A program made the position numbers and the translations under genes. DNA of 64,000 nt from a virus (lineage: Duplodnaviria; Heunggongvirae; Uroviricota; Caudoviricetes): IMG/VR virus record IMGVR_UViG_3300005918_000018. One strand, 5' to 3'. This document shows positions 27,296-60,359 of this stretch, one piece after another. The notes below the pieces were generated by a model. It searched no databases, was not told where the DNA came from, and saw only the letters and a list, made by a program, of their open reading frames with translations. Numbering within the stretch: position 1 is the first letter of the stretch; each line of letters begins with the position of its first letter.

Positions 27296-28040
27296 AGGGA
27301 ATCAAAAACCAATATTCGTTAAATTGTTATCTCCTTAGTAGGAGGTGTTAATTATGTTACCCTTATTTACTGATGAAGATTTCAAAAAAGCTAAATGCAA
27401 AGAAAAACTCCCACTTAAATGTAAACACTGTGGTGAAATATTTTATCAAACTAAACATCGTATATATGCAGGGCTACGTCCAACTCATACAAACACCACA
27501 GATTTCTGTAGTCAGGCTTGTAGTGTTAAATATCGACGGATAGGGCATCGGGTTGAGTTTGACTGTGAACAATGTAATCAACCCTCCAGTAAAAGATTAT
27601 CTCAATATAAAAGATCCAAACATCATTTTTGTGGCCATATTTGTTCAGCTACCTACTATAATCAAAGGAAACAAACTGGAACTCGGAGGTCAAAATTTGA
27701 AGTTTGGGTTGAAGAGCAGTTGGTCTCCTTATACCCTGACTTGGAATTCCATTTCAATAGGAAAGATGCCATCCAATCTGAATTGGATGTTTATATCCCT
27801 GAATTAAAACTAGCCTTTGAAATCAACGGTATCTTTCATTATGAGCCAATCTTTGGACAAGATAAGTTATCTAAAATACAAAACAATGACCATCGAAAAT
27901 TTCAGGCTTGTGCCGAGAAGGGTATTAGTCTTTGTATTATTGATACTTCAACTTTGAAATATATTAAACCTAAAAAAACTCAAAAATTCCTTGATATTAT
28001 TACCACTATCATTGATCAAACTCTTAGCCTTGATAATTAA
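27296..28040 (+). repeat. dispersed paralogous cassette A (leader + Zn-ribbon/nuclease-like CDS)
   Basis: ~80% nt identity to 56590-57330 and 59620-60359, including the 45-nt leader CAATATTCGTTAAATTGTTATCTCCTTAGTAGGAGGTGTT. Confidence 0.7.
27345..28040 (+). CDS. Zn-ribbon + putative nuclease-like C-terminal domain protein, paralog A
   Basis: 231 aa. Repeated CxxC pairs N-terminally. Conserved C-terminal 'RRSKFEVWVEEQLVSLYPDLEFHFNRKDAIQSELDVYIPELKLAFEINGIFHYEP'. Confidence 0.6.
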   Translation: MLIMLPLFTDEDFKKAKCKEKLPLKCKHCGEIFYQTKHRIYAGLRPTHTNTTDFCSQACSVKYRRIGHRVEFDCEQCNQPSSKRLSQYKRSKHHFCGHICSATYYNQRKQTGTRRSKFEVWVEEQLVSLYPDLEFHFNRKDAIQSELDVYIPELKLAFEINGIFHYEPIFGQDKLSKIQNNDHRKFQACAEKGISLCIIDTSTLKYIKPKKTQKFLDIITTIIDQTLSLDN

Positions 28041-28089
28041 ACCAAGTTACCATCTGACACCACGAGGAGGTGTTTTGATTACGTCAGAT

Positions 28090-28160
28090 AGCCGTATGAG
28101 GGAATCGAACCCTCCTTACATCCTTACCAAGGATGTGCCCTACCACTGGACTAATACGGC
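28090..28160 (-). tRNA. tRNA-Thr(GGU)
   Basis: Minus-strand read GCCGTATTAGTCCAGTGGTAGGGCACATCCTTGGTAAGGATG..GAGGGTTCGATTCCCTCATACGGC. Anticodon loop TTGGTAA. Confidence 0.7.
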
Positions 28161-28162
28161 AT

Positions 28163-28238
28163 TGGTACCGTCAAGCGGAGTCGAACCGCTGACACCCTGG
28201 CGACAAACCAGGTGCTCTGCCAACTGAGCTATGACGGT
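28163..28238 (-). tRNA. tRNA (anticodon loop TTTGTCG; UGU/Thr-like, position 37 atypical)
   Basis: Acceptor ACCGTCA/TGACGGT plus A-CCA. D-arm TAGCTCAGTTGGCAGAGCA. T-arm AGCGG-TTCGACT-CCGCT. Confidence 0.6.
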
Positions 28239-28252
28239 CAAAGGTTAGTTAC

Positions 28253-30223
28253 CTAACCAATGTAATATGTTAAAGAACGGTCTTTATTTTCTTTGAGGAC
28301 CAACTCAGTAAATTCTTCAATGGTGATAGACTTCACTGTTTTGTCATCACGTCTCCTCACGGAAACCGTGCGTTGATCTACTTCTCTTTTACCCACGATA
28401 AGCATGTAGGGTACTTTCATTTCGTGAGCCAGACGGATTTTGTGTTGGAGGCTCTCATCTTTGTCATCAACAGTAGCACGGATCATCTGGCTACGGAGGA
28501 TGTCTTTAACCTCATTTGCATAACCACCGAACTTTTCACTGCTGATCGGCAGAATACGAACCTGTTCCGGGGCTAACCAAGTCGGCATTGCTCCGGCATA
28601 ATGCTCAATGAGGTTTGAAACAAAGCGTTCCAGAGATCCCAGAATAGCTCTGTGGATCATGATAGGAGTTTGCTTAGTGCCATCCTCAGCAATGTAAGTC
28701 AAACCGAATCTCTCAGGCATTGAGAAATCAACCTGAATGGTTCCACACTGCCATGAACGTCCGATAGCATCCTTGAGATGGTAATCAATCTTAGGACCGT
28801 AGAAAGCACCGTCTCCTTCATTGATGGTGTAATCCATATCTTTCTTGTCCAAAGCAGTTTTCAAAGCAGCCTCGGCAGCTTCCCATTGCTCATCAGTACC
28901 AATGGAGTTATTAGGTCTGGTGGACAGTTCCACTTTGTAGTCCAGGAAACCAAAGGCACTGTAGGTACTATGCACCAAGTCAATCACACTGATGATTTCA
29001 TCATTCAACTGTGACGGAGTGCAATAGATATGAGCATCATCCTGAGTGAAGCCTCTTACACGAGTCAACCCGTGGAGTTCACCGGACTGTTCGTGACGAT
29101 GGACAAAACCAAACTCAGCCATCTTGACAGGCAGATCCCTGTAGGAATAATGATGGTCTTTGTAAACCAAAGTGCCACCAGGACAGTTCATAGGCTTGAC
29201 AGCATAGTCGATAATACGGTCAGAGGACATTTCATTGTCTTTCTCGTTGATTGTAGTGGCGTACATCTTGTCTTTGTAGTTATCCCAGTGACCACTTTTT
29301 TTCCACATCTCGTTATTCAACAAGGTTGCTGTTCTGATCTCCTCAAATCCACGTTTAAAGTTCATTTCCTTACAGAAGTTGAGGACGTTATCAAATATCA
29401 CAGTACCATTGCCGTGCCAGAACGGGAAACCTTGAGCTTCCTTATGGAAGCTGAATAAATCAAGTTCTTCACTTTTTCCCAGTGTTCGATGGTCTCTTTT
29501 CTTAGCTTCTACCAACATTGCAAGGTGGGCATCAAGTTCTTCTTTGTCAGAGAAAGCATACACATAGATACGTTGAAGCTGCTTTGGTGTACCCATCCAA
29601 TAAGCACCAGCAACTGATTTTATCTTGAAGCTGTCGGGGTTGATACAACCCGTAGATGGAACATGCGGTCCTTTACACCAGTCCGTGAAATCAGCCTGTT
29701 TATAGAAACTGGAAACATCACCAACACCAACTTTGTCAGTAACCATCTCCATTTTAAGAGGGGATTTCATCTTTTCCAAGAGTTCCAAACTCTCTTCTTT
29801 AGACAACTCGAAGCGGGTGACAGGGATGTTTTCTGCAATGATTCTTTTCATCTCAGCTTCGATTTTCTCGAAGTCCGAAGGGCTGAATTTATACTCTGTA
29901 TCAAAATCATAGTAAAATCCATCGTCAACAGGCGGTCCTGCTGCAAGATCAATATCAATATCACTATACAGTCTGCTTACAGCCTGAGCCAAGATATGTG
30001 ATGAAGTGTGGCGGGTAACGTCAAGTACTTCGGCAGCACTGACTTCTTCAAGGATCATGTCCTCTGTAATTGGGGTTGCCAGATCAATAATCTCACCGTT
30101 GACTTTGGCTACCAAGTCTTTTACACCAAGAATATTTCCGAGAGGTATTCCTACCTCTGCCACAAAATCTTCACTGTTCGGGTTTGAAAAAGATATTATA
30201 CATTTACTCATAGCATACTCCAT
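28253..30223 (-). CDS. thrS: threonine--tRNA ligase (ThrRS)
   Basis: 656 aa. N-terminal TGS-like region. 'HTSSHILAQAV' is the editing-domain HxxxH. The class II core 'FVHRHEQSGELHGLTRVRGFTQDDAHIYC' is motif 2/3. C-terminal anticodon-binding region. Confidence 0.85.
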   Translation of the reverse strand: MEYAMSKCIISFSNPNSEDFVAEVGIPLGNILGVKDLVAKVNGEIIDLATPITEDMILEEVSAAEVLDVTRHTSSHILAQAVSRLYSDIDIDLAAGPPVDDGFYYDFDTEYKFSPSDFEKIEAEMKRIIAENIPVTRFELSKEESLELLEKMKSPLKMEMVTDKVGVGDVSSFYKQADFTDWCKGPHVPSTGCINPDSFKIKSVAGAYWMGTPKQLQRIYVYAFSDKEELDAHLAMLVEAKKRDHRTLGKSEELDLFSFHKEAQGFPFWHGNGTVIFDNVLNFCKEMNFKRGFEEIRTATLLNNEMWKKSGHWDNYKDKMYATTINEKDNEMSSDRIIDYAVKPMNCPGGTLVYKDHHYSYRDLPVKMAEFGFVHRHEQSGELHGLTRVRGFTQDDAHIYCTPSQLNDEIISVIDLVHSTYSAFGFLDYKVELSTRPNNSIGTDEQWEAAEAALKTALDKKDMDYTINEGDGAFYGPKIDYHLKDAIGRSWQCGTIQVDFSMPERFGLTYIAEDGTKQTPIMIHRAILGSLERFVSNLIEHYAGAMPTWLAPEQVRILPISSEKFGGYANEVKDILRSQMIRATVDDKDESLQHKIRLAHEMKVPYMLIVGKREVDQRTVSVRRRDDKTVKSITIEEFTELVLKENKDRSLTYYIG

Positions 30224-30361
30224 TCATTTTGCGTTGTACTAAACAATAGTAAATCTTGCACTACAATTATATTTACCCCAAACTCGTCAAGAGCACTCAC
30301 TCCTGCTTCGGGATAGTAACGACCTACTTGTAAGATTTCAGTCTTCATTGAATTCACCTTT

Positions 30362-30437
30362 AAGTAAAAAATGGAGCCAACAGCCAGAATCGAACTGGCC
30401 ACCTACTGATTACGAATCAGTTGCTCTACCAGATGAG
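30362..30437 (-). tRNA. tRNA-Thr(CGU)
   Basis: Minus-strand read GCCGACATAGCTCATCTGGTAGAGCAACTGATTCGTAATCAGT..CCAGTTCGATTCTGGCTGTTGGCTCCA. Confidence 0.7.
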
Positions 30438-30456
30438 CTATGTCGGCTTACCCTAG

Positions 30457-30642
30457 CTAAGAATTATTAGAAATAGATTCTGCTAGGCTTGATAATTCTG
30501 AAACAGCCTTGAAAACTTCATCAAGGTCTCGTAGTTTTTCCATACTACCTTCATCATAGTTTGCATCTAAAACCAGAAAATTGTCTCTAGCCATCTTAAG
30601 ATGGTAAAGAGTAGTTTCTTTTAGTTTTTCCTTATGGGTCAT
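30457..30642 (-). CDS. small hypothetical protein
   Basis: 61 aa, MTHKEKLKETTLYHLKMARDNFLVLDANYDEGSMEKLRDL.. Confidence 0.4.
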   Translation of the reverse strand: MTHKEKLKETTLYHLKMARDNFLVLDANYDEGSMEKLRDLDEVFKAVSELSSLAESISNNS

Positions 30643-30654
30643 TGCTTACTTCCT

Positions 30655-30933
30655 TTAATAATCCTGATAGCCTAACTGAGCAGCATATTCGGCTGCCTCT
30701 GCCATAGCCATCATATTTTCTTCATCAGTCAATTCTACTGTTTCTCTGGTATCTGTTCTTGTTACTGACCGTTGAACCAGAACTTTAGTGTTGTCTGTCA
30801 AAGACAGATCCTCTGGAAAATGTACGTAATATACAACTTCAAGTGTAGGTGTATCTGCATCGGGGGATTGTCGTTCAAACTGGACTTTAATAACTGTCTG
30901 TTTGTGTGCTGCTAACTCGTGCATGATTCTCAT
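30655..30933 (-). CDS. hypothetical protein
   Basis: 92 aa. Confidence 0.45.
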   Translation of the reverse strand: MRIMHELAAHKQTVIKVQFERQSPDADTPTLEVVYYVHFPEDLSLTDNTKVLVQRSVTRTDTRETVELTDEENMMAMAEAAEYAAQLGYQDY

Positions 30934-30999
30934 ATTGTCATCCTATCTCTACGTTTCTGTTCTTTTTCAATAGCTACGCAAGCCCTTTTCCAATCAGGC

Positions 31000-32073
31000 T
31001 TACATAAATTTACAAGACATGAAGATTGGACAGCCATTCACACTACGTGGGCCGGCTTTCGAGTAATCTTCCCATACTATACCCAGATTCTCAGTATGGC
31101 CTGTTACCACACCTTTCCAAGCAAGGTTTCTTTTCAGGCTGGCTAAATCCCAGTCTGCTACTATCTTATCAAAGTCTTGGTTTTCAATATCATATTGTTT
31201 CCGATCTTCTGCAAGATTAGCTTTCAGTTCATTGATCTGGTCATTAATCTTTTGACATTGGATTTCCCATCCAGCCTTCTCGTCGGCATAATCTTTATCC
31301 AGTTTGGCATTCTTAACCTTAAAGGTTTCTAAATATTCAACCTTCTTATCCTTAGGGGCCTGTTGGAATTCAATCTGGCTCTGGATATCAGCCAGTATTT
31401 CTGGATCAGGTTTGATCTCTGAGGGCTTGTTGGGCTTATCAGGTTTCACTGGGTATGCTGGAATTGAAGGTTTCTTAGAAAGTTTTGGTTCGTCATCGGG
31501 TTCGGGAGGAAGTTTATCCTCAATTAATGCCATTACATCTTTAGGTATCTCCAAAGCACCGAACATCAGAGGCATGAAAACCATTCCCAGACTGGTACCC
31601 CTGCAATGCTTATCAGTAAAAATCAAACCTTCCATGTAACGAAGGACAAATTGCTTCAAGTCGTCCGAAGACATTGGGTACAACTTCAACTGGTGGTTGG
31701 CAATAGCTTCAAACCCTACTTTAAGTAAAACAGCCTCCTCACTTCCTGTCAAGAGCTTCTGAGTGCCGTCAATACCAATCTCCAAGCGGAACTCTTGAAC
31801 TAGATCATAAGCCGTCTCCAACTCATCACACTTAGGCTCCCAAGTTAAAGTCATTATCTTGGAAGATCGTGTAATCGAAACTGTCCATTTAGGGCATTTC
31901 CAAGTTTTCTTGGTCTTCGTTTCTTTGGTTGGTTTCCCATACCTGTTTCCGAAAACATAATCCAAGTTATCAGATGCAGGATAACCCCACATGATATGAT
32001 TCAAGGTACTTTGAATCCATTCCAGATCATCGGGAGGCCCAATGTATATTTGTTTTTTTCTCAAGTCTTCCAT
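31000..32073 (-). CDS. hypothetical protein
   Basis: 357 aa. Start overlaps the stop of 32073..34916. Confidence 0.5.
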   Translation of the reverse strand: MEDLRKKQIYIGPPDDLEWIQSTLNHIMWGYPASDNLDYVFGNRYGKPTKETKTKKTWKCPKWTVSITRSSKIMTLTWEPKCDELETAYDLVQEFRLEIGIDGTQKLLTGSEEAVLLKVGFEAIANHQLKLYPMSSDDLKQFVLRYMEGLIFTDKHCRGTSLGMVFMPLMFGALEIPKDVMALIEDKLPPEPDDEPKLSKKPSIPAYPVKPDKPNKPSEIKPDPEILADIQSQIEFQQAPKDKKVEYLETFKVKNAKLDKDYADEKAGWEIQCQKINDQINELKANLAEDRKQYDIENQDFDKIVADWDLASLKRNLAWKGVVTGHTENLGIVWEDYSKAGPRSVNGCPIFMSCKFM

Positions 32074-39389: not shown

Positions 39390-40799
39390 ATGTCATTTAA
39401 ACAAATAGTAGGTAAAGAAACTGCAAATCAATACATGATGCCTAAAATCAAAACTATGAACTGTAATGTTATTGCTTTTTTGAGTGATGCTTTATTTGAA
39501 GCATCAGAAGAAGCAGTTTGGCAGCAAGCATATAATGCTGCATCTTACCCAGGAGTAACACATGTATTTTTGATGCCTGATACACACTCAGGATATGGTG
39601 TACCAATAGGTTGTGTGATTGTTACCGAAGGAGTTATAATCCAGGCAGCAGCTGGTTATGATATATCATGTGGAATCCTCTATGCCAAAATAGAGGGGCT
39701 ATCTGCAGATAAAGTTATAGACCCTGCAAAACGCCGTCAATGGATTGATGAGATTGAACTCAGGGTAGCTACTGGAATTGGAACCAAACGTCCAGACAAG
39801 ATGCCTGTTTTCACTCACAAGTTTTTGGAGGAAGTTTTGATTACTGGGGGTCATGCCCTTGGTTTGTCTAAAGACGTTTGTGAACGTGTATCTTTACCTG
39901 TGGACACTAACCATTTCGACATGAAACGTATCCCACGAGCTACCAATAAGATGGTCGGCCAGCTAGGATCTCTCGGATCGGGCAACCACTATTGTGAACT
40001 CCAAGTAGACCCTACAGATTCGTCCGTGTGGTTGATGATTCACTGTGGTAGCCGTGGTTATGGTTGGCAAACTGCCGAACATTTCCTGTATGCTGGAGCA
40101 GAAGCTCGTGGCTTGGCCAAGAACCGCCGTGAAGAATCATGGTTATATGCTGACGAGCAGTTGGGCAAAGAGTTCTGGGCACACCATAATGCAGCTGCTA
40201 ACTATGCCATCTGCAACCGACACGTCATTGCTCAACAGGTTTCTGAAGCAACTAACGTAGTTTTTGGTAAAGGTGCTAAAACTTACTACGAGATCAGCCA
40301 TAACCTGATTCAGGAAGAAGAAATCTATGTTCCTGATGGTTCGTTGGTTAAGGGATTTGTTCACCGTAAAGGTGCTACTCGTGCTTTTCCTGCTGGACAC
40401 CCTGCTTTGTATAACACCAAGTGGTTTGATACTGGCCACCCTTGCCTGATTCCAGGTTCAATGCTGCACGGTGCAGCTATCTTGTTCCCAGAAGAAGGTG
40501 CCAAGAAGTCTGGTTGCTCCGTGAACCATGGCTCTGGTCGTTTAATGGGTCGGTATGCTGCCAAGAGAGAGTTCAAGGAACTCCAGCAGGACATCGATGA
40601 CGAGATGAACAATGCCAAGGTAGAATGCAAGGATGGTTTTATCGTTGAAGGTATCTTGATGAACTCTCGTCAAACTCCTTTGGACGAATGTGGCCATGCT
40701 TATAAAAGCCTGGATGCTGTTCTGAATGTTTTGGAAGAAGAAAATGTGGCCAAGATACATCGTCGTATGTATCCAGTTGCCAACTTAAAAGGACTTTGA
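39390..40799 (+). CDS. rtcB: RtcB RNA-splicing/repair ligase
   Basis: 'MPDTHSGYGVPIGCV' (PDxHxGxG), 'GYDISCG', 'VHRKGATRA' and 'VNHGSGRLMGR' are the RtcB metal and GTP motifs. Confidence 0.85.
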   Translation: MSFKQIVGKETANQYMMPKIKTMNCNVIAFLSDALFEASEEAVWQQAYNAASYPGVTHVFLMPDTHSGYGVPIGCVIVTEGVIIQAAAGYDISCGILYAKIEGLSADKVIDPAKRRQWIDEIELRVATGIGTKRPDKMPVFTHKFLEEVLITGGHALGLSKDVCERVSLPVDTNHFDMKRIPRATNKMVGQLGSLGSGNHYCELQVDPTDSSVWLMIHCGSRGYGWQTAEHFLYAGAEARGLAKNRREESWLYADEQLGKEFWAHHNAAANYAICNRHVIAQQVSEATNVVFGKGAKTYYEISHNLIQEEEIYVPDGSLVKGFVHRKGATRAFPAGHPALYNTKWFDTGHPCLIPGSMLHGAAILFPEEGAKKSGCSVNHGSGRLMGRYAAKREFKELQQDIDDEMNNAKVECKDGFIVEGILMNSRQTPLDECGHAYKSLDAVLNVLEEENVAKIHRRMYPVANLKGL

Positions 40800-50300: not shown

Positions 50301-51098
50301 TTATAAAATGGTTCCGGGAGAAGGAATCGAACCCTCGTCTGATGAACCAAAATCATCCGTCTTGCCGTTAGACGATCCCGGAATGTATCCTTTTTTTACC
50401 CATTTTCTTATTGAAGTATTACTAACTCCCAACATACTAGCAACCTCCAACTGGGTTTTTTCTTTTAGCAGTATTAAAAGTTCTTGAAAAGATATATCTA
50501 CTGGGATAGCTTTTGTTTTCATTATGCAAAAGAAACATAACCCAGATTTACCATGTTTTGTGATTGCACGGCCACATTTTTTACAATTATATGCCTTTTT
50601 TCGTTTGGAAGCCCCACAAAAAGTAGGTTGCTGGCTGTTGCAATTAGGGCATAGTAGACGTAAATTTTCTAATCTGTGATCGTCTCGGACTCCGTTTATA
50701 TGATCCAAAACTAGAACTAATGGTTTCTTGTCCCACATAGGGAGCAACCCGCAAAGGACACATTTGTTTTTTAGTATTCCTTCGTGTAAAAGACGTTTTT
50801 TCAAATGACCCCTACTGTAAGTAGAGTGTTCCACCATTATTTTTTCAAGTGGTCTTTTCTGTGCTTGTCTGCGTTCCTTTAGTTTCCCACAGTTCTTTTT
50901 TAAACTGTTTCGTACAAACTCATTGTAATCTAAACCCATTTCTTGCATTCTGTTTTTTACAGTATAGTGGTTCCCCCCAACCCCTTTCAACCCAAAAAAC
51001 TCTAATACTTCTCTAATGGAATCACTATTGTTTAGAAGTTCGATGAATTTGTCGTCTTCTAATTTCCATATAGGGCTTCTTCGTTTTCTAGTGTGCAT
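50301..51098 (-). CDS. HNH homing endonuclease (paralog of 14831..15598)
   Basis: 'VLDHINGVRDDHRLENLRLLCPNCN'. The probable start is MHTRKRR (GAGG RBS). The ORF reads ..IPG then continues 27 codons straight through the tRNA gene. Confidence 0.75.
   Translation of the reverse strand: MHTRKRRSPIWKLEDDKFIELLNNSDSIREVLEFFGLKGVGGNHYTVKNRMQEMGLDYNEFVRNSLKKNCGKLKERRQAQKRPLEKIMVEHSTYSRGHLKKRLLHEGILKNKCVLCGLLPMWDKKPLVLVLDHINGVRDDHRLENLRLLCPNCNSQQPTFCGASKRKKAYNCKKCGRAITKHGKSGLCFFCIMKTKAIPVDISFQELLILLKEKTQLEVASMLGVSNTSIRKWVKKGYIPGSSNGKTDDFGSSDEGSIPSPGTIL
50309..50380 (-). tRNA. tRNA-Gln(UUG) (tentative), embedded in HNH ORF 3' end
   Basis: Minus-strand read TCCGGGATCGTCTAACGGCAAGACGGATGATTTTGGTTCATC..GAGGGTTCGATTCCTTCTCCCGGAACCA. 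Confidence 0.6.
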
Positions 51099-51323
51099 AC
51101 ATAAACCTCTGTTATTAATAGTTAGAACCTGTACTATTATCAATGGTATAGGTTTTTTAGAATAAGTCAAGGTTTAATTACCTGCTGGACGACACCCGAA
51201 TAATTATCGGTTATACCACATAATATGAGTGTAAGATTTATCTACCTTACCACTCGTAACATCCGAGGGTTTAACCACTCAAGAGTGACAGGTTTATTAT
51301 CATCCTTAGACATTGGCATCTCC

Positions 51324-51361
51324 TTGTAATACAACAACCCACGAAAATCAAAAACTAAGCC
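51324..51361 (-). promoter_or_regulatory. conserved phage promoter-like motif copy 10
   Basis: Upstream of the HNH gene on the minus strand. Confidence 0.55.
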
Positions 51362-51401
51362 GTTATTACCAGCTTGGTATTCTTATAGGGTATAATACCC
51401 T

Positions 51402-52881: not shown

Positions 52882-52944
52882 CTCAACAATATCATCCTGA
52901 TGAGCTATATTTTTTTTCAGTTTCTTGGATCAGATTATCTACGT

Positions 52945-53523: not shown

Positions 53524-53527
53524 TTAA

Positions 53528-54526: not shown

Positions 54527-54552
54527 CTGTCAGGTGATTAAATCACGTTCAG

Positions 54553-56547
54553 TTAAACTTTCGGGGCATCCATCATCGATCTCATCCGTTTAGTCATCGT
54601 TTTTTTAACCTTGGGGATAACATCATCACCGTTGGCCATGCCCGTCAGGGTTGCAAAGAGTCCGTCCATGGCACTCCCACTGCCACCACCGGTTACGAGA
54701 ACCTTCGGCATGATGTTCATACCATTCTCAGACAAGGAACGAGCCACGTTGACTACTGTAGTTCCCTGCTGACCAATGGCCTCCACTTGCTTCTGATAAC
54801 CCTCAGCAAGACCAAGAGCAGTAGCTCTGACTTCGGCAGCTTTAGCAGCACCCGTCATTTCGATGTATGTTGCTTCACCATCAGCTTCGTTTTTACGAGC
54901 ATTGGCTTGGTTCTCAGCAATTTCCATACCGAGTTGGGAACTAACCAGATCTTTCTGCTTGTCAGCCTGAGCATTGGATTTCTCCATCTTGACACGTTGG
55001 TTCTGAGACTCAGTCTGTTTCTTGTAAGTTTCGATTTCCTGATTGGCAATTTCACGTTCGGTCAGGACTTCTACCAACTGTGCTGGCAGGATAACATCCT
55101 GAATATAGACACCACGGACTTCAACTTCATACTGGCCTAAATGCCTCACGATATGGTCGTTGGCTTCTGTTTGGATGGTTTGACGATCCTCAATGAACTT
55201 GACAGCAGCCATTGTTTGCAGCTTATCCCGGAAATGGTTACCAACGGCAGCTTGCAAAACTTCATTGATCAGATTTGCCATAGTTCCGACCATCGAAATA
55301 ACCTGTGGGGCTTTCGTGTCAGGAACATGAATCTGCACTTGAAGGTCGATAGTAAATACAAAACCTTCCTTGGATTTAGCACCAATCGAACTGAGCTGTT
55401 TGTCAAGGTCATGAGCGTCAGAAGTAGCATTTGCCCAGTTCAGAGTCAGGATGCTGGTAGGCACCTTTTCAACCTGATAACAACGGGGATTTAAAGCATA
55501 CTTACCTGTACGAAGAGGTTCTTGCCAAATACCACGGTGACCAGGTCGGACAAGAGAGCCAAATTTGAACTCAGCACCAGAGATGTCTTCTGTAACCAAA
55601 CCGACATAGGCTTTGACCACGGCAACTTGACCCTGTTGGATTACCAACATTGGAGCTTTTTCTACTCTAACGAGGAAGGGGTTCAGTGCATATGCACCAT
55701 ACATCAACGGATCATGCTGGAGTCCCATTGTCCCGCCTTCGTCGAGGAACTTCTGGTAATCCTGATAGTTGTTATGTTTGTCGTTCTGGCTGCCGAGCAA
55801 TAGCTCAATCATAGCAGCATCAGAAATTTTATCTTTGCTTGTTTCTATGTCCCCGATGTCTTTGAATCCATTCATACGGGATGCAATATCACCAGCAGGA
55901 AGTGGAGGTCCTTCAAGAGTTGTCACGATACCAATGATATCCTTAACTCCGTTGTTGGAGGAATCTGGTTCGATGACAGTCAACTTGAAACAACTGGGGG
56001 AAAGTCCAAATCGTTCTGAGCCTCGAACTGCTTTTTTCACGTCTTCGGACATTGGAAGCCCGAATACTTTGTCAGAAGTAACGACAAGGAAAGCAACAGG
56101 ATGGATTGGGACGATAGTTCCTGGAGATAGCACAGGACGTTGGATACCTTTTTGACCACCGTTTTCAATGAATACCTTCAAGTCACGATAGTCACCGAAG
56201 ATTTCTTTGTAAGCAGCAGATTTAGCACCGATAGGCAAAGGGTCTCCAATCTGAGATTGAACCACACCAATTTGGCCTGGAGGTACTTGCACCCACGGAT
56301 GTTTTTCAACGGAATAAATTGGCCAGAGCATGAATCTCAAGCCAGGCATCAACAAATCAGCTTGATAACCGGCTTCACCATTGAAGGCTATCGGGTTATC
56401 CCCACTCAGTTGTTTAAAGGCAAGGTTTTTGGATACAAGTCCAACCTCGTCCTCATCAATAAAGTGGAACGACTTGATCACCATTCCGGTGATCACGCCT
56501 GCTATAACAGCAAGCACAGCTACAACAAAAAGCACAAGACCAGTCAT
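54553..56547 (-). CDS. SPFH/band-7 (flotillin-like) membrane protein
   Basis: N-terminal TM 'LVLFVVAVLAVIAGVITGMVI'. Band-7 core. Long C-terminal flotillin-like coiled coil (EIANQEIETYKKQTESQNQR...). Confidence 0.65.
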   Translation of the reverse strand: MTGLVLFVVAVLAVIAGVITGMVIKSFHFIDEDEVGLVSKNLAFKQLSGDNPIAFNGEAGYQADLLMPGLRFMLWPIYSVEKHPWVQVPPGQIGVVQSQIGDPLPIGAKSAAYKEIFGDYRDLKVFIENGGQKGIQRPVLSPGTIVPIHPVAFLVVTSDKVFGLPMSEDVKKAVRGSERFGLSPSCFKLTVIEPDSSNNGVKDIIGIVTTLEGPPLPAGDIASRMNGFKDIGDIETSKDKISDAAMIELLLGSQNDKHNNYQDYQKFLDEGGTMGLQHDPLMYGAYALNPFLVRVEKAPMLVIQQGQVAVVKAYVGLVTEDISGAEFKFGSLVRPGHRGIWQEPLRTGKYALNPRCYQVEKVPTSILTLNWANATSDAHDLDKQLSSIGAKSKEGFVFTIDLQVQIHVPDTKAPQVISMVGTMANLINEVLQAAVGNHFRDKLQTMAAVKFIEDRQTIQTEANDHIVRHLGQYEVEVRGVYIQDVILPAQLVEVLTEREIANQEIETYKKQTESQNQRVKMEKSNAQADKQKDLVSSQLGMEIAENQANARKNEADGEATYIEMTGAAKAAEVRATALGLAEGYQKQVEAIGQQGTTVVNVARSLSENGMNIMPKVLVTGGGSGSAMDGLFATLTGMANGDDVIPKVKKTMTKRMRSMMDAPKV

Positions 56548-56589
56548 TACGTTTCTCCTTACAGAGGGTTAAATGGTAGCACTGAAAAT

Positions 56590-57330
56590 ATTCAAAAATC
56601 AATATTCGTTAAATTGTTATCTCCTTAGTAGGAGGTGTTGTTTATGTTACCCTTATTTACTGACGAAGAATTTGAAAAAGCTAAGTCCAGAGAAAAACTC
56701 CCACTGAAATGTAAGCATTGCGGGAAAACTTTTTATCAAACTAAGAATCAAATTCAAGTTGGGTATTCCCCCAAGTATCATACAAAATGGGAATTCTGCT
56801 CTCCTTCCTGTATGGGTTCTTATCGGTATAAAGGTCACCGTATTGATTTTAACTGTGAACAATGTAGGAAATTATCCAGTAAGTTAAAATCTGCATATAA
56901 AAGAACAAAACATCATTTCTGTTCAAAATCTTGTTCAGCTACTTATCATAACCAAAGAAAACAAACAGGAACTCGGAGATCAAAATTTGAAGTCTGGGTT
57001 GAAAAACAACTGGTCTCCTTGTATCCAAATCTTGAGTTCCATTTTAACAAGAAAGACACCATTCAATCAGAACTAGATATCTACATCCCCTCTCTCAAGC
57101 TGGCTTTTGAGATAAATGGGGTTTTTCATTATGAACCTATCTTTGGACAAGATAAACTTGATAAGATTCAAAAAAATGAAAAAGGTAAATTTGCTGCCTG
57201 TATTGAAAAGAACATCAGTCTTTGTATTATTGACGTTAGTACTTTAAGCTACTTCAAGCCTAAAAAAGCTCAGAAGTTCCTTGACATAATTACTAATATC
57301 ATTGATCAAGCTATCAGCCTGGATTCATAA
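56590..57330 (+). repeat. dispersed paralogous cassette B
   Basis: Leader AATATTCGTTAAATTGTTATCTCCTTAGTAGGAGGTGTTG plus CDS, ~80% nt identity to cassettes A and C. Confidence 0.7.
56635..57330 (+). CDS. Zn-ribbon + putative nuclease-like protein, paralog B
   Basis: 231 aa. Same architecture as 27345..28040. Confidence 0.6.
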   Translation: MLFMLPLFTDEEFEKAKSREKLPLKCKHCGKTFYQTKNQIQVGYSPKYHTKWEFCSPSCMGSYRYKGHRIDFNCEQCRKLSSKLKSAYKRTKHHFCSKSCSATYHNQRKQTGTRRSKFEVWVEKQLVSLYPNLEFHFNKKDTIQSELDIYIPSLKLAFEINGVFHYEPIFGQDKLDKIQKNEKGKFAACIEKNISLCIIDVSTLSYFKPKKAQKFLDIITNIIDQAISLDS

Positions 57331-57377
57331 TCCAGTTTCCATCCAATGCCTCGTGGAGGCTGCTTGACATCATTGGA

Positions 57378-57450
57378 CAGCGGTGGCCGGATTCGAACCG
57401 ACGACCTGATGGGTATGAGCCACCCGAGCTGTCCTCTGCTCTACACCGCA
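57378..57450 (-). tRNA. tRNA-Met(CAU) copy 3 (no encoded CCA)
   Basis: Minus-strand read GCGGTGTAGAGCAGAGGACAGCTCGGGTGGCTCATACCCATC..GTCGGTTCGAATCCGGCCACCGCT. Confidence 0.65.
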
Positions 57451-57463
57451 AAAAAAGTTTTTC

Positions 57464-57499
57464 TCAATACAACAACCCACGACTTTTCAAAACTAAGCC
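57464..57499 (-). promoter_or_regulatory. conserved phage promoter-like motif copy 11
   Basis: Contains the TAG stop of the guanylate kinase gene (GGCTTAG). Sits upstream of tRNA-Met on the minus strand. Confidence 0.55.
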
Positions 57500-58053
57500 G
57501 TGTTTTTTATTATTCGGTATAAATCTTGTACTGTTTTTTCAATATCAACATTAATCAACTGATAGTCATATGTCTCAGCATCTTTGATTTCTTCTAATGC
57601 TCGGTTTAATCGTATTTGAATCACATCTTCAGTATCAGAACCTCTACCCCGAAGACGTTTTTCCATCTCATCCTTAGAAGGAGGTAACAAAAAGATTGTA
57701 GTAGCTTCAGGGAGTTTTGCTTTGACAGTTTCTTTTCCCTGAGTATCAATTACAAGGATTGCTCCGTCTCCGCAATCCCAAACAGTCTCCACATCAGACA
57801 TTAAAGTCCCATAAGATTGACCGTGGACTGTGGCATACTCAAGGAATTTGTTTGACTTAACTAAGATATTAAAAGAAAATTCTGTTAAAAACTGATAGTC
57901 AATACCATCTAATTCACCTTTACGAGGTTTTCTAGTGGTACAGGTTTTAACTTGTCTCCAGCCAGCATTAGAATATCTTTGGAGAAACCGATCCACTACG
58001 GTTGTTTTTCCAACTCCTGACGGTGCTGACAATATAACTAAATCTTTCGGCAT
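57493..58053 (-). CDS. gmk: guanylate kinase
   Basis: P-loop 'LSAPSGVGKTTV'. 'TTRKPRKGELDGIDYQF' is the GMP-binding signature. Confidence 0.8.
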   Translation of the reverse strand: MPKDLVILSAPSGVGKTTVVDRFLQRYSNAGWRQVKTCTTRKPRKGELDGIDYQFLTEFSFNILVKSNKFLEYATVHGQSYGTLMSDVETVWDCGDGAILVIDTQGKETVKAKLPEATTIFLLPPSKDEMEKRLRGRGSDTEDVIQIRLNRALEEIKDAETYDYQLINVDIEKTVQDLYRIIKNTA

Positions 58054-58125
58054 TCAATTTATCCAATCTTATTCAGATGGCTGATTTTCGTAACGATGGC
58101 TGAGGTCGAATCAAGTTCATCCATA

Positions 58126-58194
58126 TCAGGGATGAGCTTCAATCCATAGGATTGCTGCTTCTAATGATGTTGATTTAAACGGGTTAATAATCAT
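58126..58194 (-). CDS. very small ORF (22 aa) downstream of motif copy 12
   Basis: MIINPFKSTSLEAAILWIEAHP. A spacing-consistent ATG follows GTAAGAAAGAGAACCATT. Low confidence. Confidence 0.2.
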   Translation of the reverse strand: MIINPFKSTSLEAAILWIEAHP

Positions 58195-58205
58195 AATGGT
58201 TCTCT

Positions 58206-58244
58206 TTCTTACCTCAACAACCCACAAAAAAGAGAAACTAAGCC
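58206..58244 (-). promoter_or_regulatory. conserved phage promoter-like motif copy 12
   Basis: TTCTTACCTCAACAACCCACAAAAAAGAGAAACTAAGCC. Confidence 0.6.
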
Positions 58245-58253
58245 AAAAATAAA

Positions 58254-58329
58254 TGGAGCGGGAGACGGGACTCGAACCCGTGGCATCTACCTTGGGAAGG
58301 TAGTACTCTACCAACTGAGTTACACCCGC
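58254..58329 (-). tRNA. tRNA-Gly(CCC)
   Basis: Minus-strand read GCGGGTGTAACTCAGTTGGTAGAGTACTACCTTCCCAAGGTAG..ACGGGTTCGAGTCCCGTCTCCCGCTCCA. Confidence 0.65.
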
Positions 58330-58336
58330 GTTTTTA

Positions 58337-58726
58337 TTAAGCTTTGTTCAGGTAATCAGCAACTTTTTGAAGGTTACTTAAGAATCGGCCACCGTTTCGT
58401 TCAACCATCTCACCGACAGCTTGAAGGCTTGTTTTAGCTTCTTTACTGTAAGTAGCTGTTTTACTTGGGATATAGCAGAATACGGTTTTCTCTGGCCGTT
58501 TGTTGGAATCATCGACGACTTCGGCTATTGAATACACACCCTTCATATCCGGGGTGATGACATACAAGCAGAAATCACATTCCTCACGTTCCCTCAGTTC
58601 CGTTCTCTTGGCTGTTTCATCCCAGTTCTCTACGACAGGGTCAAAGAAATCAATGGTTAGTAATTGGATGAGTTCTTCTCTCCATGTTGTTTCAGCACAG
58701 GTACCACCTAAAAACACTCGTTTCAT
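58337..58726 (-). CDS. nucleoside 2-deoxyribosyltransferase-like protein
   Basis: 'RVFLGGTCAETTWREE' and 'DFCLYVITPDMKGVYSIAEVVD' resemble NDT/DUF4406 family signatures (weak). Confidence 0.4.
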   Translation of the reverse strand: MKRVFLGGTCAETTWREELIQLLTIDFFDPVVENWDETAKRTELREREECDFCLYVITPDMKGVYSIAEVVDDSNKRPEKTVFCYIPSKTATYSKEAKTSLQAVGEMVERNGGRFLSNLQKVADYLNKA

Positions 58727-58782
58727 TTGGGGTTCTCTTTTTCATCAAGGTTAAAAAAAAATGGAGCTGGGTCTTAAAGATC

Positions 58783-58962
58783 CTATTTTTTTTCTGCTGT
58801 AAGTGATGTGGGGCTGAAGGTTCCTTCAAGAAGGTCTTTTGCCTTAAACCAAAGGCAAAAGAAATTTCCATTTTTGTCTTTTTCAGATATTGTCATCATA
58901 GGACCGCCTGATTTTAATTCAACTACATCCCCTATTTTCAATTCTTGGTTGTCAGTACTCAT
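58783..58962 (-). CDS. DUF2158-like small protein (unlisted ORF)
   Basis: 59 aa, 'MSTDNQELKIGDVVELKSGGPMMTISEKDKNGNFFCLWF', the DUF2158 (YodC-like) pattern FKxGDxVxLKSGGPxMTV. The plus-strand ORF 58808..58996 is its antisense artefact. Confidence 0.5.
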   Translation of the reverse strand: MSTDNQELKIGDVVELKSGGPMMTISEKDKNGNFFCLWFKAKDLLEGTFSPTSLTAEKK

Positions 58963-59030
58963 AGCATCTCACTTTCATTGTAAAGGGTTTTTCTGATAGC
59001 AACTATCATACTATACCCAAAGAATAAAAA

Positions 59031-59106
59031 TGGAGCAGATAACGGGGTACGATCCCGTAGCCTTCGGATTGGCAACCCGATGCTCTACCAGTTGAGCTAT
59101 ATCTGC
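59031..59106 (-). tRNA. tRNA-Gly(GCC)
   Basis: Minus-strand read GCAGATATAGCTCAACTGGTAGAGCATCGGGTTGCCAATCCGA..ACGGGATCGTACCCCGTTATCTGCTCCA. Confidence 0.65.
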
Positions 59107-59116
59107 ATTATTACTA

Positions 59117-59192
59117 TGGATGAGGTGGAAAGGTTTGAACTTTCGACATTCGGATTCAGAGACCGATGCTCTACCAACTGAGCTACACCTCA
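59117..59192 (-). tRNA. tRNA-Gln(CUG) (tentative)
   Basis: Minus-strand acceptor TGAGGTG/CACCTCA plus T-CCA. Anticodon loop CTCTGAA. T-arm GAAAG-TTCAAAC-CTTTC. Confidence 0.55.
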
Positions 59193-59203
59193 ATAATTAT
59201 AAA

Positions 59204-59280
59204 TGGTACATCTGACAGGACTCGAACCTGTGGTCCCTGGTTTCGTAGACCAGTGCTTTATCCATCTAAGCTACAGATGC
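59204..59280 (-). tRNA. tRNA-Arg(ACG)
   Basis: Minus-strand read GCATCTGTAGCTTAGATGGATAAAGCACTGGTCTACGAAACCAG..CAGGTTCGAGTCCTGTCAGATGTACCA. Confidence 0.7.
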
Positions 59281-59287
59281 TTAATTG

Positions 59288-59587
59288 TTAGAGTAAGGAA
59301 AGTCTTCGGAAAATTTCTCCGGTATGCACGGTGGCCAGAGCAGTTACTTGGTCACCAATATCAGGTTCCCGGAACACCTTGAAAGGGATATCGTTCCCTT
59401 CCAATCGTCTCCTCCAGGTTTTCAGTTGCCTTCGGCCACTGACTCCCAAGATGATCATAGTTCCGTTCTTCCACTTTGTTTTGGGTCCTCTCAGAAGCCA
59501 CTCAGCTACGGCATGGCCGGACTGAACAACTTGCTGGGACATCGGTAAGTCCCTACGGACTAAGACGTATAATTTTTGTTCTTCCAT
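59288..59587 (-). CDS. peptidyl-tRNA hydrolase, PTH2 family
   Basis: 'VLVRRDLPMSQQVVQSGHAV' matches the Pth2 signature VxRxDLxMxxGKxxAQxxHA. Length 99 aa. Confidence 0.6.
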   Translation of the reverse strand: MEEQKLYVLVRRDLPMSQQVVQSGHAVAEWLLRGPKTKWKNGTMIILGVSGRRQLKTWRRRLEGNDIPFKVFREPDIGDQVTALATVHTGEIFRRLSLL

Positions 59588-59619
59588 TAGGAACTCCTAT
59601 AAATATTGGTACGTGATAC

Positions 59620-60359
59620 TGGGATTTAATTTCAATATTCATTAAATTGCCATCTCCTTATAGGAGGTGTTGATTATGATCCCTTTATATACCCCAGAAG
59701 AATTCGAGAATGCTAAGTCCAGAGAGAAACTCCCCATCAAATGTAAACGCTGTGGAAAAACATTTTATAAGACCAAACATGTTGTGTATATGACATTCTC
59801 AAAGACATCTACCACAAATGATTTCTGTAGCAGATTTTGTAGTTCTAAATATCTTCATGAAAGCCGCTGTGTTGATTTTGACTGTGAGCAATGTGGAAAA
59901 CACACCAGTAATATCTTATCTGAATTTAATAGAAACAAACACCATTTCTGTTCTCGGTCTTGCTCTGCTACCTATTATAACCAAAGGAAACAAACAGGAA
60001 TCCGAAGGTCAAAATTTGAAGTCTGGGTTGAAGAACAGTTGGTCTCCTTGTACCCAAATCTTGAATTTCACTTTAATAGGAAAGATACAATCCAATCGGA
60101 ACTTGATATTTATATCCCATCTCTTAAATTAGCTTTTGAGATAAATGGTATTTTCCATTATGAACCCATCTTTGGTCAAGATAAACTTGACCGAACTCAA
60201 AAGAATGAAAAAGGAAAGTTTGCAGCTTGTTTTGAAAAGAACATTAGCCTTTGTATAATTGATATTAGCACTTTAAATTATTTTAAACCAAAAAAGGCTC
60301 AAAAGTTCCTTGATATTATTACTACTATCATTGATCAAACTCTTAGCCTGGAGTCTTAA
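59620..60359 (+). repeat. dispersed paralogous cassette C
   Basis: Leader CAATATTCATTAAATTGCCATCTCCTTATAGGAGGTGTTGATT plus CDS. Confidence 0.7.
59667..60359 (+). CDS. Zn-ribbon + putative nuclease-like protein, paralog C
   Basis: 230 aa. Same architecture as paralogs A and B. Confidence 0.6.
   Translation: MLIMIPLYTPEEFENAKSREKLPIKCKRCGKTFYKTKHVVYMTFSKTSTTNDFCSRFCSSKYLHESRCVDFDCEQCGKHTSNILSEFNRNKHHFCSRSCSATYYNQRKQTGIRRSKFEVWVEEQLVSLYPNLEFHFNRKDTIQSELDIYIPSLKLAFEINGIFHYEPIFGQDKLDRTQKNEKGKFAACFEKNISLCIIDISTLNYFKPKKAQKFLDIITTIIDQTLSLES

Follow-up and report, generated by a model that had tools for sequence, protein, structure and literature searches.

The window analysed here, a 64,000-nt stretch of DNA from a virus of the Caudoviricetes, contains three copies of a repeated cassette on the + strand, as an earlier note on this DNA had reported; a repeat search links 27302–28040, 56592–57330 and 59624–60359 with 65–87% identity per block, and a three-way DNA alignment of the cassettes gives a mean column identity of 83%. 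Each copy holds one nuclease gene on the + strand (gene 1, 27354–28040, 228 aa; gene 2, 56644–57330, 228 aa; gene 3, 59676–60359, 227 aa), the three proteins being 70–72% identical. The length of 231 aa previously given for the product stems from an ORF-caller artefact, a GTG 9 nt upstream of the ATG. The ATG itself lies 8 nt past an AGGAGG Shine–Dalgarno (SD) sequence, and the leader hairpin proposed to mask it is indeed found: a CTCCT/AGGAG stem, extended to 8 pairs, occupies 27328–27347 in cassette 1 (anti-SD at 27331–27335, SD at 27340–27345, P(SD paired) 0.99), 56618–56637 in cassette 2 and 59651–59669 in cassette 3 (all + strand), and these hairpins are stable (−10.5 to −12.9 kcal/mol, z −2.8 to −3.7). 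The source is a non-gut huge phage (environmental metagenome).

The identity of ~80% between copies had been taken as a sign of recent spread. Synonymous sites have reached saturation among the copies (dS 1.2–1.9), and the cassette 2 copy is nearer to a metagenomic relative (L100, dS 0.89) than to the copies in cassettes 1 or 3; the identity therefore reflects constraint rather than recent spread. The overall interpretation of the earlier note is partly supported.

Nuclease protein family

The CxxC pairs and the conserved C-terminal block described previously are both present. The N-terminal module consists of two FCS/MYM-like zinc fingers, which probably read DNA, and this half of the protein diverges rapidly; the remainder has a Vsr-like PD-(D/E)xK catalytic fold, in keeping with the nuclease-like character first suspected, and its nearest solved folds are DNA nucleases, one of them a homing endonuclease. 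Neither Pfam nor PDB yielded a sequence match to the nuclease domain. (Hits to the “Bagel” designed propellers in PDB were rejected as a single 34-residue match repeated within a repeat protein.) The family motif reads ELD...FE(L/I)NGxFH, with an invariant Asn158 where the Asp of EDxHD/Vsr enzymes is expected, such that neither the conserved E-D-x-H-D catalytic motif nor sequence-level membership of the EDxHD family is found. Because Asn158 takes the place of the canonical Asp, catalysis in the cassette nucleases is assumed rather than demonstrated; we infer both nuclease activity and a target site, the family probably recognizing the universally conserved T-arm of tRNA genes.

Sequence similarity of the cassette protein to the I-Bth0305I/EDxHD family and Vsr-like nucleases (PDB 3r3p, 1cw0) is undetectable. 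The cassette motif is E-x-N-G-x-x-H, with Asn replacing Asp, the N-terminal module is formed by the zinc finger pair, and the gene is a free-standing one, unlike that of I-Bth0305I, which lies within a group I intron. The family is large and unnamed (>2,300 homologues, every one labeled “hypothetical”); an HDV ribozyme was looked for beside its short cyanobacterial homologues and none was seen.

tRNA genes, missing CCA and a 3′-end duplication

Each cassette is convergent with a tRNA gene, again as first described, the ORF ending 17–49 nt from the tRNA 3′ end (Thr-ggt at 28090, Met-cat at 57374 by ARAGORN or 57378 by Rfam, and Val-tac at 60377). Cassette 1 is a complete 783-nt element (27307–28089, +) lying between two copies of tRNA positions 54–73. 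On one side, the intact tRNA-Thr(ggt) (28090–28160, −) contributes copy A (28090–28109) and lacks an encoded CCA; on the other, a displaced copy B of the same 3′ end (27284–27306, −; alignment score 35; 95th percentile of controls, 14) carries positions 54–73 at 27287–27306, identical to copy A at 19 of 20 positions, followed by the native CCA (27284–27286) and TTTTT. Upstream of cassette 2 lies a diverged tRNA 3′-end remnant (T-loop half, T-stem and acceptor strand) with CCA (56574–56596, −), and its tRNA-Met(cat) (57378–57450, −) has no CCA encoded at positions 74–76. A comparable diverged remnant with CCA precedes cassette 3 (59607–59629, −). This third cassette is partly decayed, since the 5′ half of its ribozyme is missing and only the 3′ part, antisense to the last codons, is left (14.9 bits, E 0.13, with our ribozyme model R1, see below); the adjoining tRNA-Val(tac) (60377–60451, −) has a native encoded CCA-TTT and is not ribozyme-processed.

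CCA is encoded in 30 of the 33 tRNAs of the window, and the three without it are exactly the three that adjoin a ribozyme. Apart from the cassette-linked genes, tRNA-Leu(cag) (12517–12600) is the sole CCA-less tRNA.

HDV-like ribozymes at tRNA 3′ ends

The predicted self-cleaving ribozyme 1 (28011–28089, −) is HDV-like, of theta type with a P4 stem. Its position +1 (28089) falls immediately past the tRNA discriminator, its catalytic C is at 28027, and its last 30 nt are antisense to, and overlap, the nuclease ORF. The Rfam model RF02682 matches over its full span (positions 1–74, from N73+1; E 3e-6 in a 221-nt search) with 39.4 bits, below the gathering threshold of 44 bits; R1 scores it at 61.6 bits, and its helices covary. 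Ribozyme 2 (57301–57378, −; R1 56.8 bits), the start of which is uncertain by 1 nt, abuts tRNA-Met(cat). A solo ribozyme of the cassette type (12601–12684, +; R1 50.4 bits) stands directly past tRNA-Leu(cag) with no nuclease gene, and retains the 3′ sequence GGCUAAGAGUUUGAUCAAU that, in the cassettes, runs antisense to nuclease codons. All three score 50–62 bits with R1, and their offsets from the tRNA end are 0, −5 (ARAGORN end; within ~1 nt of the Rfam tRNA end) and −1, placing the putative cleavage site no more than 5 nt from the tRNA 3′ end, as in theta ribozymes.

The elements adopt a nested double-pseudoknot fold with P1, P2, P3 (and P4) in canonical order. Among 29 sequences, pairing reaches 85.6% in P1, 96.6% in the P2 pseudoknot and 100% in P3; 92.9% of cells are paired, compared with 70.3% in shuffles and 27–49% in slid controls, and 16 of 17 pairs covary, changing on both sides. 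Folding is better on the tRNA-sense strand in 24 of 32 sequences (p = 0.001). The catalytic cytosine occupies the first position of J4/2 (GGCUAAGA in cassette 1, GGCUGAUAG in cassette 2), with C-N-A-A kept in 29/29 aligned sequences and column C63 invariant. (Column pair counting on a first alignment of the 3′ element, A4, was dropped because MAFFT had shifted the 3′ arm in some rows; pairing was re-scored by within- versus cross-sequence complementarity and on a longer alignment, A5.) These particular copies are putatively self-cleaving.

Cassettes in related phages

Antisense ribozymes accompany about 50 non-redundant nuclease genes, overlapping the ORF by 9–65 nt, and in most loci the ribozyme 5′ end is 0 or −1 nt from the tRNA end. 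The tRNA-end duplication is near-exact in 23 of 63 loci, covering 15 tRNA species; it usually spans T54 to N73 and measures 20 nt in 13 of the 23 and 19–21 nt in 17, a fixed-length duplication of the kind left at target sites by DNA transposons. Across duplicated loci, the ribozyme follows copy A, and C or CCA follows copy B. Searching from the ribozyme instead returned five tRNA-linked matches, namely three complete cassettes with duplication, one decayed gene and one solo ribozyme (an initial ribozyme-core pattern mostly drew HDV ribozymes of the F. prausnitzii type; these are preceded by hairpins, not tRNAs, and were set aside as unrelated).

The earlier note had called for insertion polymorphism across related phages, and this is seen in two pairs. 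At a syntenic tRNA-Leu(caa), one locus is unoccupied (L005; tRNA, then CCA) and the other occupied (L004), with the element beginning directly at the 3′ side of N73; the L004 junction is of replacement type, its left end lying at T54 of the next tRNA with about 165 nt deleted. The second pair (L065 versus L058) is at a gene junction, where the family member in L065 sits between protein-coding genes without tRNA or ribozyme. The genes thus lie outside introns and inteins and vary in presence at the same site, as free-standing homing endonuclease genes (HEGs) do. Cassette 1 was present on every contig with an identical flanking gene (identical-protein look-ups), and is therefore at fixation in the population of this phage. 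The searches yielded no clean unoccupied allele at the sites of the window itself; for site 1, neither an exact pattern nor the neighbouring 223-aa protein and ThrRS, used as IMG/VR queries, returned one.

The two parts also occur singly. About 77 of 127 family copies have no R1 match, about 10 solo ribozymes occur in nuclease-selected loci, one of them in the window, and at L192 a decaying gene adjoins a ribozyme. A GIY-YIG endonuclease ORF follows 14 of 51 minimal theta-ribozyme sites, some of which are flanked by 15–17 nt copies of the tRNA end; no adjacent endonuclease gene was detected at the other 37, and a search for minimal theta ribozymes inside a Zn-finger/Vsr-like cassette gave 0/51. 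The solo ribozymes and these 37 sites imply that the ribozyme can persist, and perhaps arise, without a nuclease.

Relation to known systems

Theta ribozymes are minimal HDV-like ribozymes beside phage tRNA 3′ ends (Kienbeck et al, 2024; Nat Commun, PMC10879173), for four of which Mg2+-dependent self-cleavage in vitro is published, and the tRNAs associated with them rarely encode CCA (4.5%; PMC10879173). They share the architecture of the window ribozymes (P1, J, P2, ACC-UCCACGU-GGU, P1′, GG, L4/P4, C-U-A-A, P2′), the cleavage site at the tRNA 3′ end and the missing CCA (encoded in 0/3 of the window tRNAs concerned). The window ribozymes possess a real P4 stem-loop of 20–30 nt, whereas the published theta strings have an L4 of 5–8 nt (PMC10879173), and they probably fall outside the published theta search motif, with its short L4 and J1/2. 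That paper assigns the theta ribozyme a role in phage tRNA maturation or recoding, with no mention of an endonuclease gene, mobility or a flanking duplication (PMC10879173); here, by contrast, the ribozyme would be one half of an inserted cassette.

The arrangement recalls group I intron–HEG partnerships and IStrons, in which a selfish nuclease gene is joined to a ribozyme that undoes the insertion at the RNA level and leaves the host gene functional. It differs from group I intron–HEG pairs in that the cassette does not splice, its ribozyme would cut once (at the tRNA 3′ end), the tRNA 3′ segment is duplicated in the DNA, and the nuclease gene is antisense to and overlaps the ribozyme. HDV-like ribozymes of the R2, RTE and L1Tc retrotransposons likewise sit exactly where a host RNA gene meets a mobile element, freeing both from a co-transcript; those are retroelements with an RNA intermediate and a reverse transcriptase, whereas the cargo here is a DNA endonuclease and no reverse transcriptase is present. 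Endonuclease genes between phage tRNA genes, where the cassettes also reside, include those of T4 SegB and the T5 F-Tfl enzymes, which are preferentially inherited by cutting alleles that lack them; these belong to the GIY-YIG or HNH families and, to our knowledge, have no described ribozyme partner or tRNA-end duplication. The cassettes also resemble integrative elements that are directed at tRNA genes and bring a replacement 3′ end: with a copy of the 3′ segment on either side of the insert, the tRNA stays intact. Those elements depend on recombinases of the tyrosine or serine type together with a fixed attachment sequence, whereas the cassettes have no recombinase and their repeat differs for each tRNA species, on which grounds a site-specific integrase/att-site model was rejected.

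Discussion

We consider it probable that a free-standing homing-type endonuclease gene and an HDV-like ribozyme, on opposite strands, form a single selfish cassette that invades tRNA genes, an explanation built on the observed anatomy, fold assignments, ribozyme covariation, duplication, alleles with and without the insert, and the association of a ribozyme with a missing CCA. The cassettes would then be compact selfish elements of about 760–800 nt at the 3′ ends of phage tRNA genes. The nuclease gene lies opposite the tRNA strand. The ribozyme lies on the tRNA strand, where its first nucleotide is joined to the discriminator N73 and its 3′ part runs antisense to the final nuclease codons. In the proposed mechanism, insertion would remove the encoded CCA and native trailer from the tRNA, displacing a second copy of positions 54–73 with CCA to the far side; on transcription of the tRNA array, the ribozyme would cut at its own 5′ end to give a tRNA ending exactly at N73, which would then need end-healing and CCA addition. 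As the tRNA survives, insertion would be nearly neutral. The nuclease would cleave tRNA genes that have no cassette, at a site within or close to the conserved T-arm, whereupon the cassette would be copied from an occupied allele by recombination. For the first creation of the duplication, nicks about 20 bp apart followed by fill-in would be the simplest geometry for this family. If ordinary double-strand break (DSB) repair drew on a donor at another tRNA, the product would be a chimeric tRNA, so this route leaves the colonization of new tRNA species unexplained. RtcB RNA ligation, tRNA-primed or reverse-transcription routes and several DSB-repair schemes were considered for the N73/ribozyme junction and rejected, all needing extra assumptions and no reverse transcriptase being present.

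Ribozyme and nuclease might instead be independent residents, the former an adaptation for tRNA 3′-end maturation, as the theta-ribozyme paper proposes, and the latter an ordinary free-standing HEG found beside such tRNAs by chance, with no composite unit. Solo ribozymes abutting tRNAs (12601–12684 in the window and about nine others) agree with this, as do the family members without ribozyme or tRNA, the roughly 77 of 127 copies lacking an R1 match, the absence of the cassette nuclease family from all 51 minimal theta sites and of a detected endonuclease ORF from 37 of them. We nevertheless judge it unlikely: in 23 loci one pair of tRNA-end copies encloses ribozyme and gene together, copy B retains the native CCA and trailer, both parts are absent from the unoccupied allele, the ribozyme catalytic core lies inside the ORF at the overlap of 9–65 nt, and the same coupling recurs in an unrelated endonuclease family (GIY-YIG), while the decaying gene of L192 offers a route to solo ribozymes.

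Still less probable are two accounts that assign the protein another role. Vsr-like RAP/FASTK domains occur in RNA-binding proteins, which would suit an RNA-processing factor working on phage tRNAs alongside the ribozyme (in pre-tRNA trailer handling or end healing, for example) rather than a DNA homing enzyme; such a factor would, however, be encoded antisense to the tRNA array it serves, by three divergent paralogues in one genome each tied to one tRNA, and its presence would vary among related phages and extend to non-tRNA intergenic sites. The nearest solved folds, DNA nucleases including a homing endonuclease, and the rapid zinc finger divergence, which fits shifting DNA targets, also speak for DNA as the substrate. 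Marginally less credible again is a true transposon, in which the nuclease would act as a transposase, excising and inserting with a fixed 20-bp duplication at T54/N73 of any tRNA gene and needing no homologous donor. The duplication boundaries are precise and reproducible over 15 tRNA species, which is hard to achieve by homology-directed repair from a different-tRNA donor, and copy A equals copy B in newly colonized species. Yet terminal inverted repeats, sought at the element ends, are not shared, no transposase family matches, and we know of no PD-(D/E)xK enzyme that performs strand transfer alone; the replacement-type junction of L004 (T54 of the next tRNA, about 165 nt deleted) also speaks against it, the variable 15–17 nt copies at GIY-YIG cassettes point to recombinational rather than transpositional junctions, and orthologous homing by itself can propagate a duplication once formed.

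If the selfish-cassette explanation holds, the ribozymes would keep tRNA genes working while selfish nuclease genes reside in them. It would explain the absence of encoded CCA in ribozyme-linked tRNAs and predicts dependence on end-healing and CCA-adding enzymes; it further predicts self-cleavage at N73, cutting by the nuclease close to 53/54 and 73/74, and, in co-infection, super-Mendelian inheritance. More broadly, we give an even chance to the proposition that phage tRNA-3′ HDV-like (theta) ribozymes are the “healing” half of unrecognized homing-endonuclease mobile elements, and not primarily an adaptation for tRNA maturation, at least two unrelated nuclease families (antisense Zn-finger/Vsr-like and sense GIY-YIG) having entered the partnership independently and solo ribozymes being what remains after nuclease decay. 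On that view, homing endonucleases would have a third means of concealment within essential genes, besides inteins and self-splicing introns. This would offer an alternative account of the hundreds to thousands of HDV-like ribozymes at phage tRNA 3′ ends, whose function is openly debated. Part of the turnover and reshuffling that huge-phage tRNA arrays undergo may also be due to the cassettes, which are of practical interest both as compact, modular nucleases that would target tRNA genes and for ribozymes that would make exact RNA 3′ ends.

Three cassettes in the tRNA array carry a putative homing-type endonuclease gene

The window holds 33 tRNA genes and one tmRNA in two oppositely oriented arrays, and a repeat search located three plus-strand copies of a ~750-nt segment within the minus-strand array (cassettes 1–3; 27296–28040, 56590–57330 and 59620–60359). 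The copies align over their full length with a mean column identity of 83% and are thus genuine, as an earlier note had read them from the sequence. Each contains an ORF (27354–28040, 228 aa; 56644–57330, 228 aa; 59676–60359, 227 aa; all +), the true start of which is the ATG 8 nt past AGGAGG; a convergent tRNA has its 3′ end 17–49 nt away from each stop, in keeping with the neighboring tRNAs described in that note. We conclude that the cassettes are composite elements, combining a putative homing-type endonuclease gene with a predicted HDV-like ribozyme that overlaps it in antisense. These components are of known kinds; their combination, and its implication for the origin of phage tRNA-linked ribozymes, appear undescribed in the literature searched.

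The suspected nuclease character of the protein was borne out by profile search: PHROGs matches are to families carrying homing- or HNH-endonuclease annotations (best 1.8e-19), Pfam returned FCS/MYM-type zinc fingers alone (weakly, two times), and a PDB sequence search with the nuclease domain yielded no sequence-level relative. Eight cysteines and residues E143, D145, E156, N158, H162 and E164 are invariant in the family, and divergence of the zinc-finger half outpaces that of the nuclease half severalfold, as would be expected of a DNA-reading module with changing targets. The family comprises >2,300 matches, none of them named and many on contigs of 200–440 kb (the window's parent contig is 402 kb), and no close relative was found in cultured phages. 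A shorter homologue with a single zinc finger and the nuclease domain occurs in cyanobacterial isolate genomes (Microcoleus, Microseira, Tolypothrix, Nostoc, Kamptonema; loci L213, L216–L231) inside dense chromosomal tRNA arrays (20–27 tRNAs per 5.5 kb), with a convergent tRNA 47–69 nt away; the spacer at these loci resembles uncalled tRNA-like sequence, and no HDV ribozyme was detected there.

The three window proteins share 70–72% pairwise identity, with dN/dS of 0.09–0.20. Because dS among the copies is saturated (1.2–1.9) and copy 2 has diverged less from a metagenomic relative than from copies 1 and 3, the cassettes do not represent a recent expansion, contrary to the recent spread first proposed.

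The leader hairpin is a clade-specific accessory

Sequestration of the ribosome-binding site is known to restrain homing endonuclease expression in T4-type phages. The proposed hairpin masking the Shine–Dalgarno (SD) sequence is real in all three window copies (z −2.8 to −3.7), but as a hallmark of the cassettes it fails in most relatives, 82 of 125 leaders being without any SD (51 of these 82 have a TATTTA box instead). The sub-clade that uses an SD (43/125 leaders) has a pyrimidine-rich anti-SD, with an uncontrolled mean P(SD paired) of 0.77. The hairpin is an accessory of one clade, not a defining feature.

A predicted HDV-like ribozyme overlaps the nuclease gene in antisense

The structured segment on the tRNA strand is predicted to be an HDV-like self-cleaving ribozyme. 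At cassette 1, Rfam RF02682 aligned end to end from 28089 to 28015, position 1 being the nucleotide past the tRNA discriminator, at 39.4 bits (below the gathering score of 44; E = 5e-4 in a 35-kb search, 3e-6 in a local search). This alignment provides P1 (AUCUGAC/GUCAGAU), P2 (AUCAAA/UUUGAU), P3 with L3, P4, and the J4/2 core GGCUAAGA. Across 29 sequences from different loci, 92.9% of paired cells are complementary, versus 70.3% with columns shuffled and 27–49% with partners slid; both sides vary in 16/17 pairs, the P2 pseudoknot is 96.6% paired with covariation in 7/7 pairs, and the catalytic C is invariant. In a separate alignment (A4) of shorter 3′-element sequences, 24/32 fold better on the tRNA-sense than on the gene-sense strand (p = 0.001).

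Our own covariance model, made from the aligned sequences, places the ribozyme antisense over the 3′ end of ~50 non-redundant nuclease genes, overlapping the ORF by 9–65 nt, with its 5′ end at an offset of 0 or −1 nt relative to that of the tRNA; the stretch encoding the conserved C-terminal peptide (...IDQTLSL...) thus also encodes the catalytic core and P2 strand of the ribozyme. In the window, the ribozymes of copies 1 and 2 are intact (61.6 and 56.8 bits with this model), and that of copy 3, which adjoins a native CCA-encoding tRNA-Val, has lost its 5′ half. A fourth, solo ribozyme (12601–12684, +; 50.4 bits) lies in the other, plus-strand array, between tRNA-Leu(cag), which it directly abuts, and tRNA-Tyr, 2 nt further on, with neither nuclease gene nor flanking duplication; it keeps sequence antisense to cassette nuclease codons, which suggests descent from a cassette. 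CCA is encoded by 30 of the 33 window tRNA genes (usually followed by TTT), and the three that lack it are exactly the three with a ribozyme directly after them, a strong internal control for the link between ribozyme and missing CCA.

Cassettes sit at tRNA 3′ ends, flanked by duplicated positions 54–73

Read along the tRNA strand, the order is tRNA 1–73, the conserved structured segment, the antisense gene, its leader, a second tRNA 3′ end, C or CCA, and the native downstream sequence. At cassette 1 this second copy (27287–27306) matches 28090–28109 at 19/20 positions and is followed by CCA-TTTTT. Near-exact copies were present in 23 of 63 testable loci, spanning 15 tRNA species; their commonest length is 20 nt, they start at TTC(G/A)A (tRNA position T54) in ~20/23, and they end at the discriminator base (N73). 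In these 23 loci the element (759–804 nt, beginning with G or A) always follows the intact tRNA copy, and the nucleotide after the displaced copy is C in 22, the full CCA being present in 9. No terminal inverted repeats were found at the element ends. The cassettes are thus insertions at tRNA 3′ ends in which positions 54–73 are duplicated. A variant cassette (L189, ~1,060 nt) has an extra 80-aa ORF between nuclease gene and ribozyme (1096–1338) and a 20-nt duplication that is nonetheless perfect. The left ends of elements bear an inverted T-loop-like box, TCGAAAA-N4-8-TTTTCGATATTC (for example L004 4950–4985, L005, L128, L176; AATCAAAAACCAATATTCGTTAAAT at 27300–27325 in the window), which forms a near-palindrome with the displaced T-loop and could act as an operator or be bound by the nuclease.

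Relatives were sampled at 159 loci from IMG/VR and metagenomes, holding 127 non-redundant gene copies. A convergent tRNA lies ≤130 nt from the stop in 69/127 copies and a co-directional one in 1/127. Across the loci, 744 tRNAs are on the strand opposite the nuclease gene and 67 share its strand; as a rule, therefore, the gene is antisense within tRNA arrays. Several cassettes are carried by amber-suppressor tRNAs (anticodon CTA, tRNA-Pyl according to ARAGORN; L003, L010, L140, L038–L043).

The insertion polymorphism anticipated for mobile cassettes was observed in relatives, but not at the window's own sites, where cassette 1 is fixed in the phage population and a search for an unoccupied allele found none. 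In the unoccupied locus L005, a tRNA-Leu(caa) ending ...GGCACGA|CCA precedes a spacer and a further tRNA; in its occupied syntenic partner L004, the element begins right past the last A of GGCACGA and runs to T54 of the following tRNA, in place of ~165 nt. A family member also lies between two protein-coding genes in tRNA-free surroundings (L065), and is missing from a relative (L058). In its general behavior the family therefore resembles free-standing homing endonuclease genes, and it includes a large tRNA-specialized branch.

Two endonuclease families are coupled to tRNA-linked ribozymes

A 2024 paper described HDV-like "theta" ribozymes adjoining the 3′ ends of phage tRNAs, with self-cleavage demonstrated in vitro for four, CCA encoded by only 4.5% of the associated tRNAs, and a proposed role as a genome-saving tRNA-maturation or recoding device (PMC10879173). 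Their reported enrichment at suppressor tRNAs of recoded phages (PMC10879173) is matched by the cassettes on CTA-anticodon tRNAs. The words "endonuclease", "homing" and "duplication" do not occur in that text (PMC10879173), and HDV-like ribozyme, homing endonuclease, tRNA and phage were not found together in the searchable literature, where just six papers name theta ribozymes. Published theta ribozymes have the architecture of the window ribozymes but a minimal L4; the window ribozymes bear P4, a form that probably falls outside the published search motif.

Searching IMG/VR from the ribozyme side gave five P4-type tRNA-linked ribozymes: three in complete cassettes with the 20-nt duplication, one with a nuclease-gene fragment and one solo. 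The window's nuclease family was found at 0/51 minimal theta sites; a GIY-YIG (Seg-like) endonuclease ORF (Pfam 3.5e-13) follows 14/51 on the same strand after 3–72 nt, and several of these sites are bounded by a 15–17 nt copy of the tRNA 3′ end, then CCA (for example L266, L293, L271, L285, L292, L278 and L246, the last a ~140-nt mini-element without an intact ORF). Coupling to tRNA-3′ ribozymes is therefore shared by two unrelated endonuclease families, with a constant boundary on the ribozyme side (N73|+1) and a far boundary that depends on the nuclease family. HDV-like ribozymes of the F. prausnitzii type occupy a different genomic context, after a terminator-like hairpin and not a tRNA (L181, L183, L184, L186, L188, L190, L193, L196–L199).

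Proposed mechanism

We propose that the nuclease would cut at the conserved T-arm of unoccupied tRNA genes, or close to it, and thereby drive the cassette to be copied in from occupied alleles, which would themselves be immune because each of their two tRNA copies lacks part of the target. In the array transcript, the ribozyme would cut after N73 and so give back a usable tRNA end, which must then be healed and receive CCA. HDV-type cleavage yields 2′,3′-cyclic-phosphate and 5′-OH ends, the substrates of RtcB; the window encodes an RtcB RNA ligase (39390–40799, +; Pfam 4e-84). CCA-adding enzymes are enriched in theta-ribozyme phages (PMC10879173).

Homing between orthologous tRNAs would account for propagation of the duplication, but fails to explain the exact N73|ribozyme junction with a matching duplication at a new tRNA species, since a donor at a different tRNA would leave a chimeric acceptor stem. 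Nicks ~20 bp apart followed by fill-in would match the duplication geometry of the window's nuclease family; the variable boundaries of the GIY-YIG cassettes and the replacement-type L004 junction argue for recombinational routes.

Other features of the tRNA arrays

A ThrRS gene (28253–30223, −) lies directly upstream of two tRNA-Thr genes and cassette 1, and guanylate kinase (57493–58053) and PTH2 (59288–59587) genes lie between cassettes. The phage-encoded tmRNA (24915–25268, −; tag ANTELAIAA) sits between the two arrays, and tmRNAs also occur near the cassettes of L058 and L060. A second, unrelated endonuclease type in the same array, an HNH_3 plus HTH endonuclease-like ORF (50301–51170, −), overlaps tRNA-Gln(ttg) (50309–50382) at its 3′ end. 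A dispersed ~61-nt motif, reading TACTACAACAACCCAC...AAACTAAGCC on the plus strand, has six window copies (9380–9440, 22494–22554, 23058–23118, 51311–51371, 57449–57509, 58194–58254), two of them just upstream of tRNAs on the minus strand (Met at 57451, Gly at 58329), and may serve the tRNA array as a phage promoter or regulatory box.
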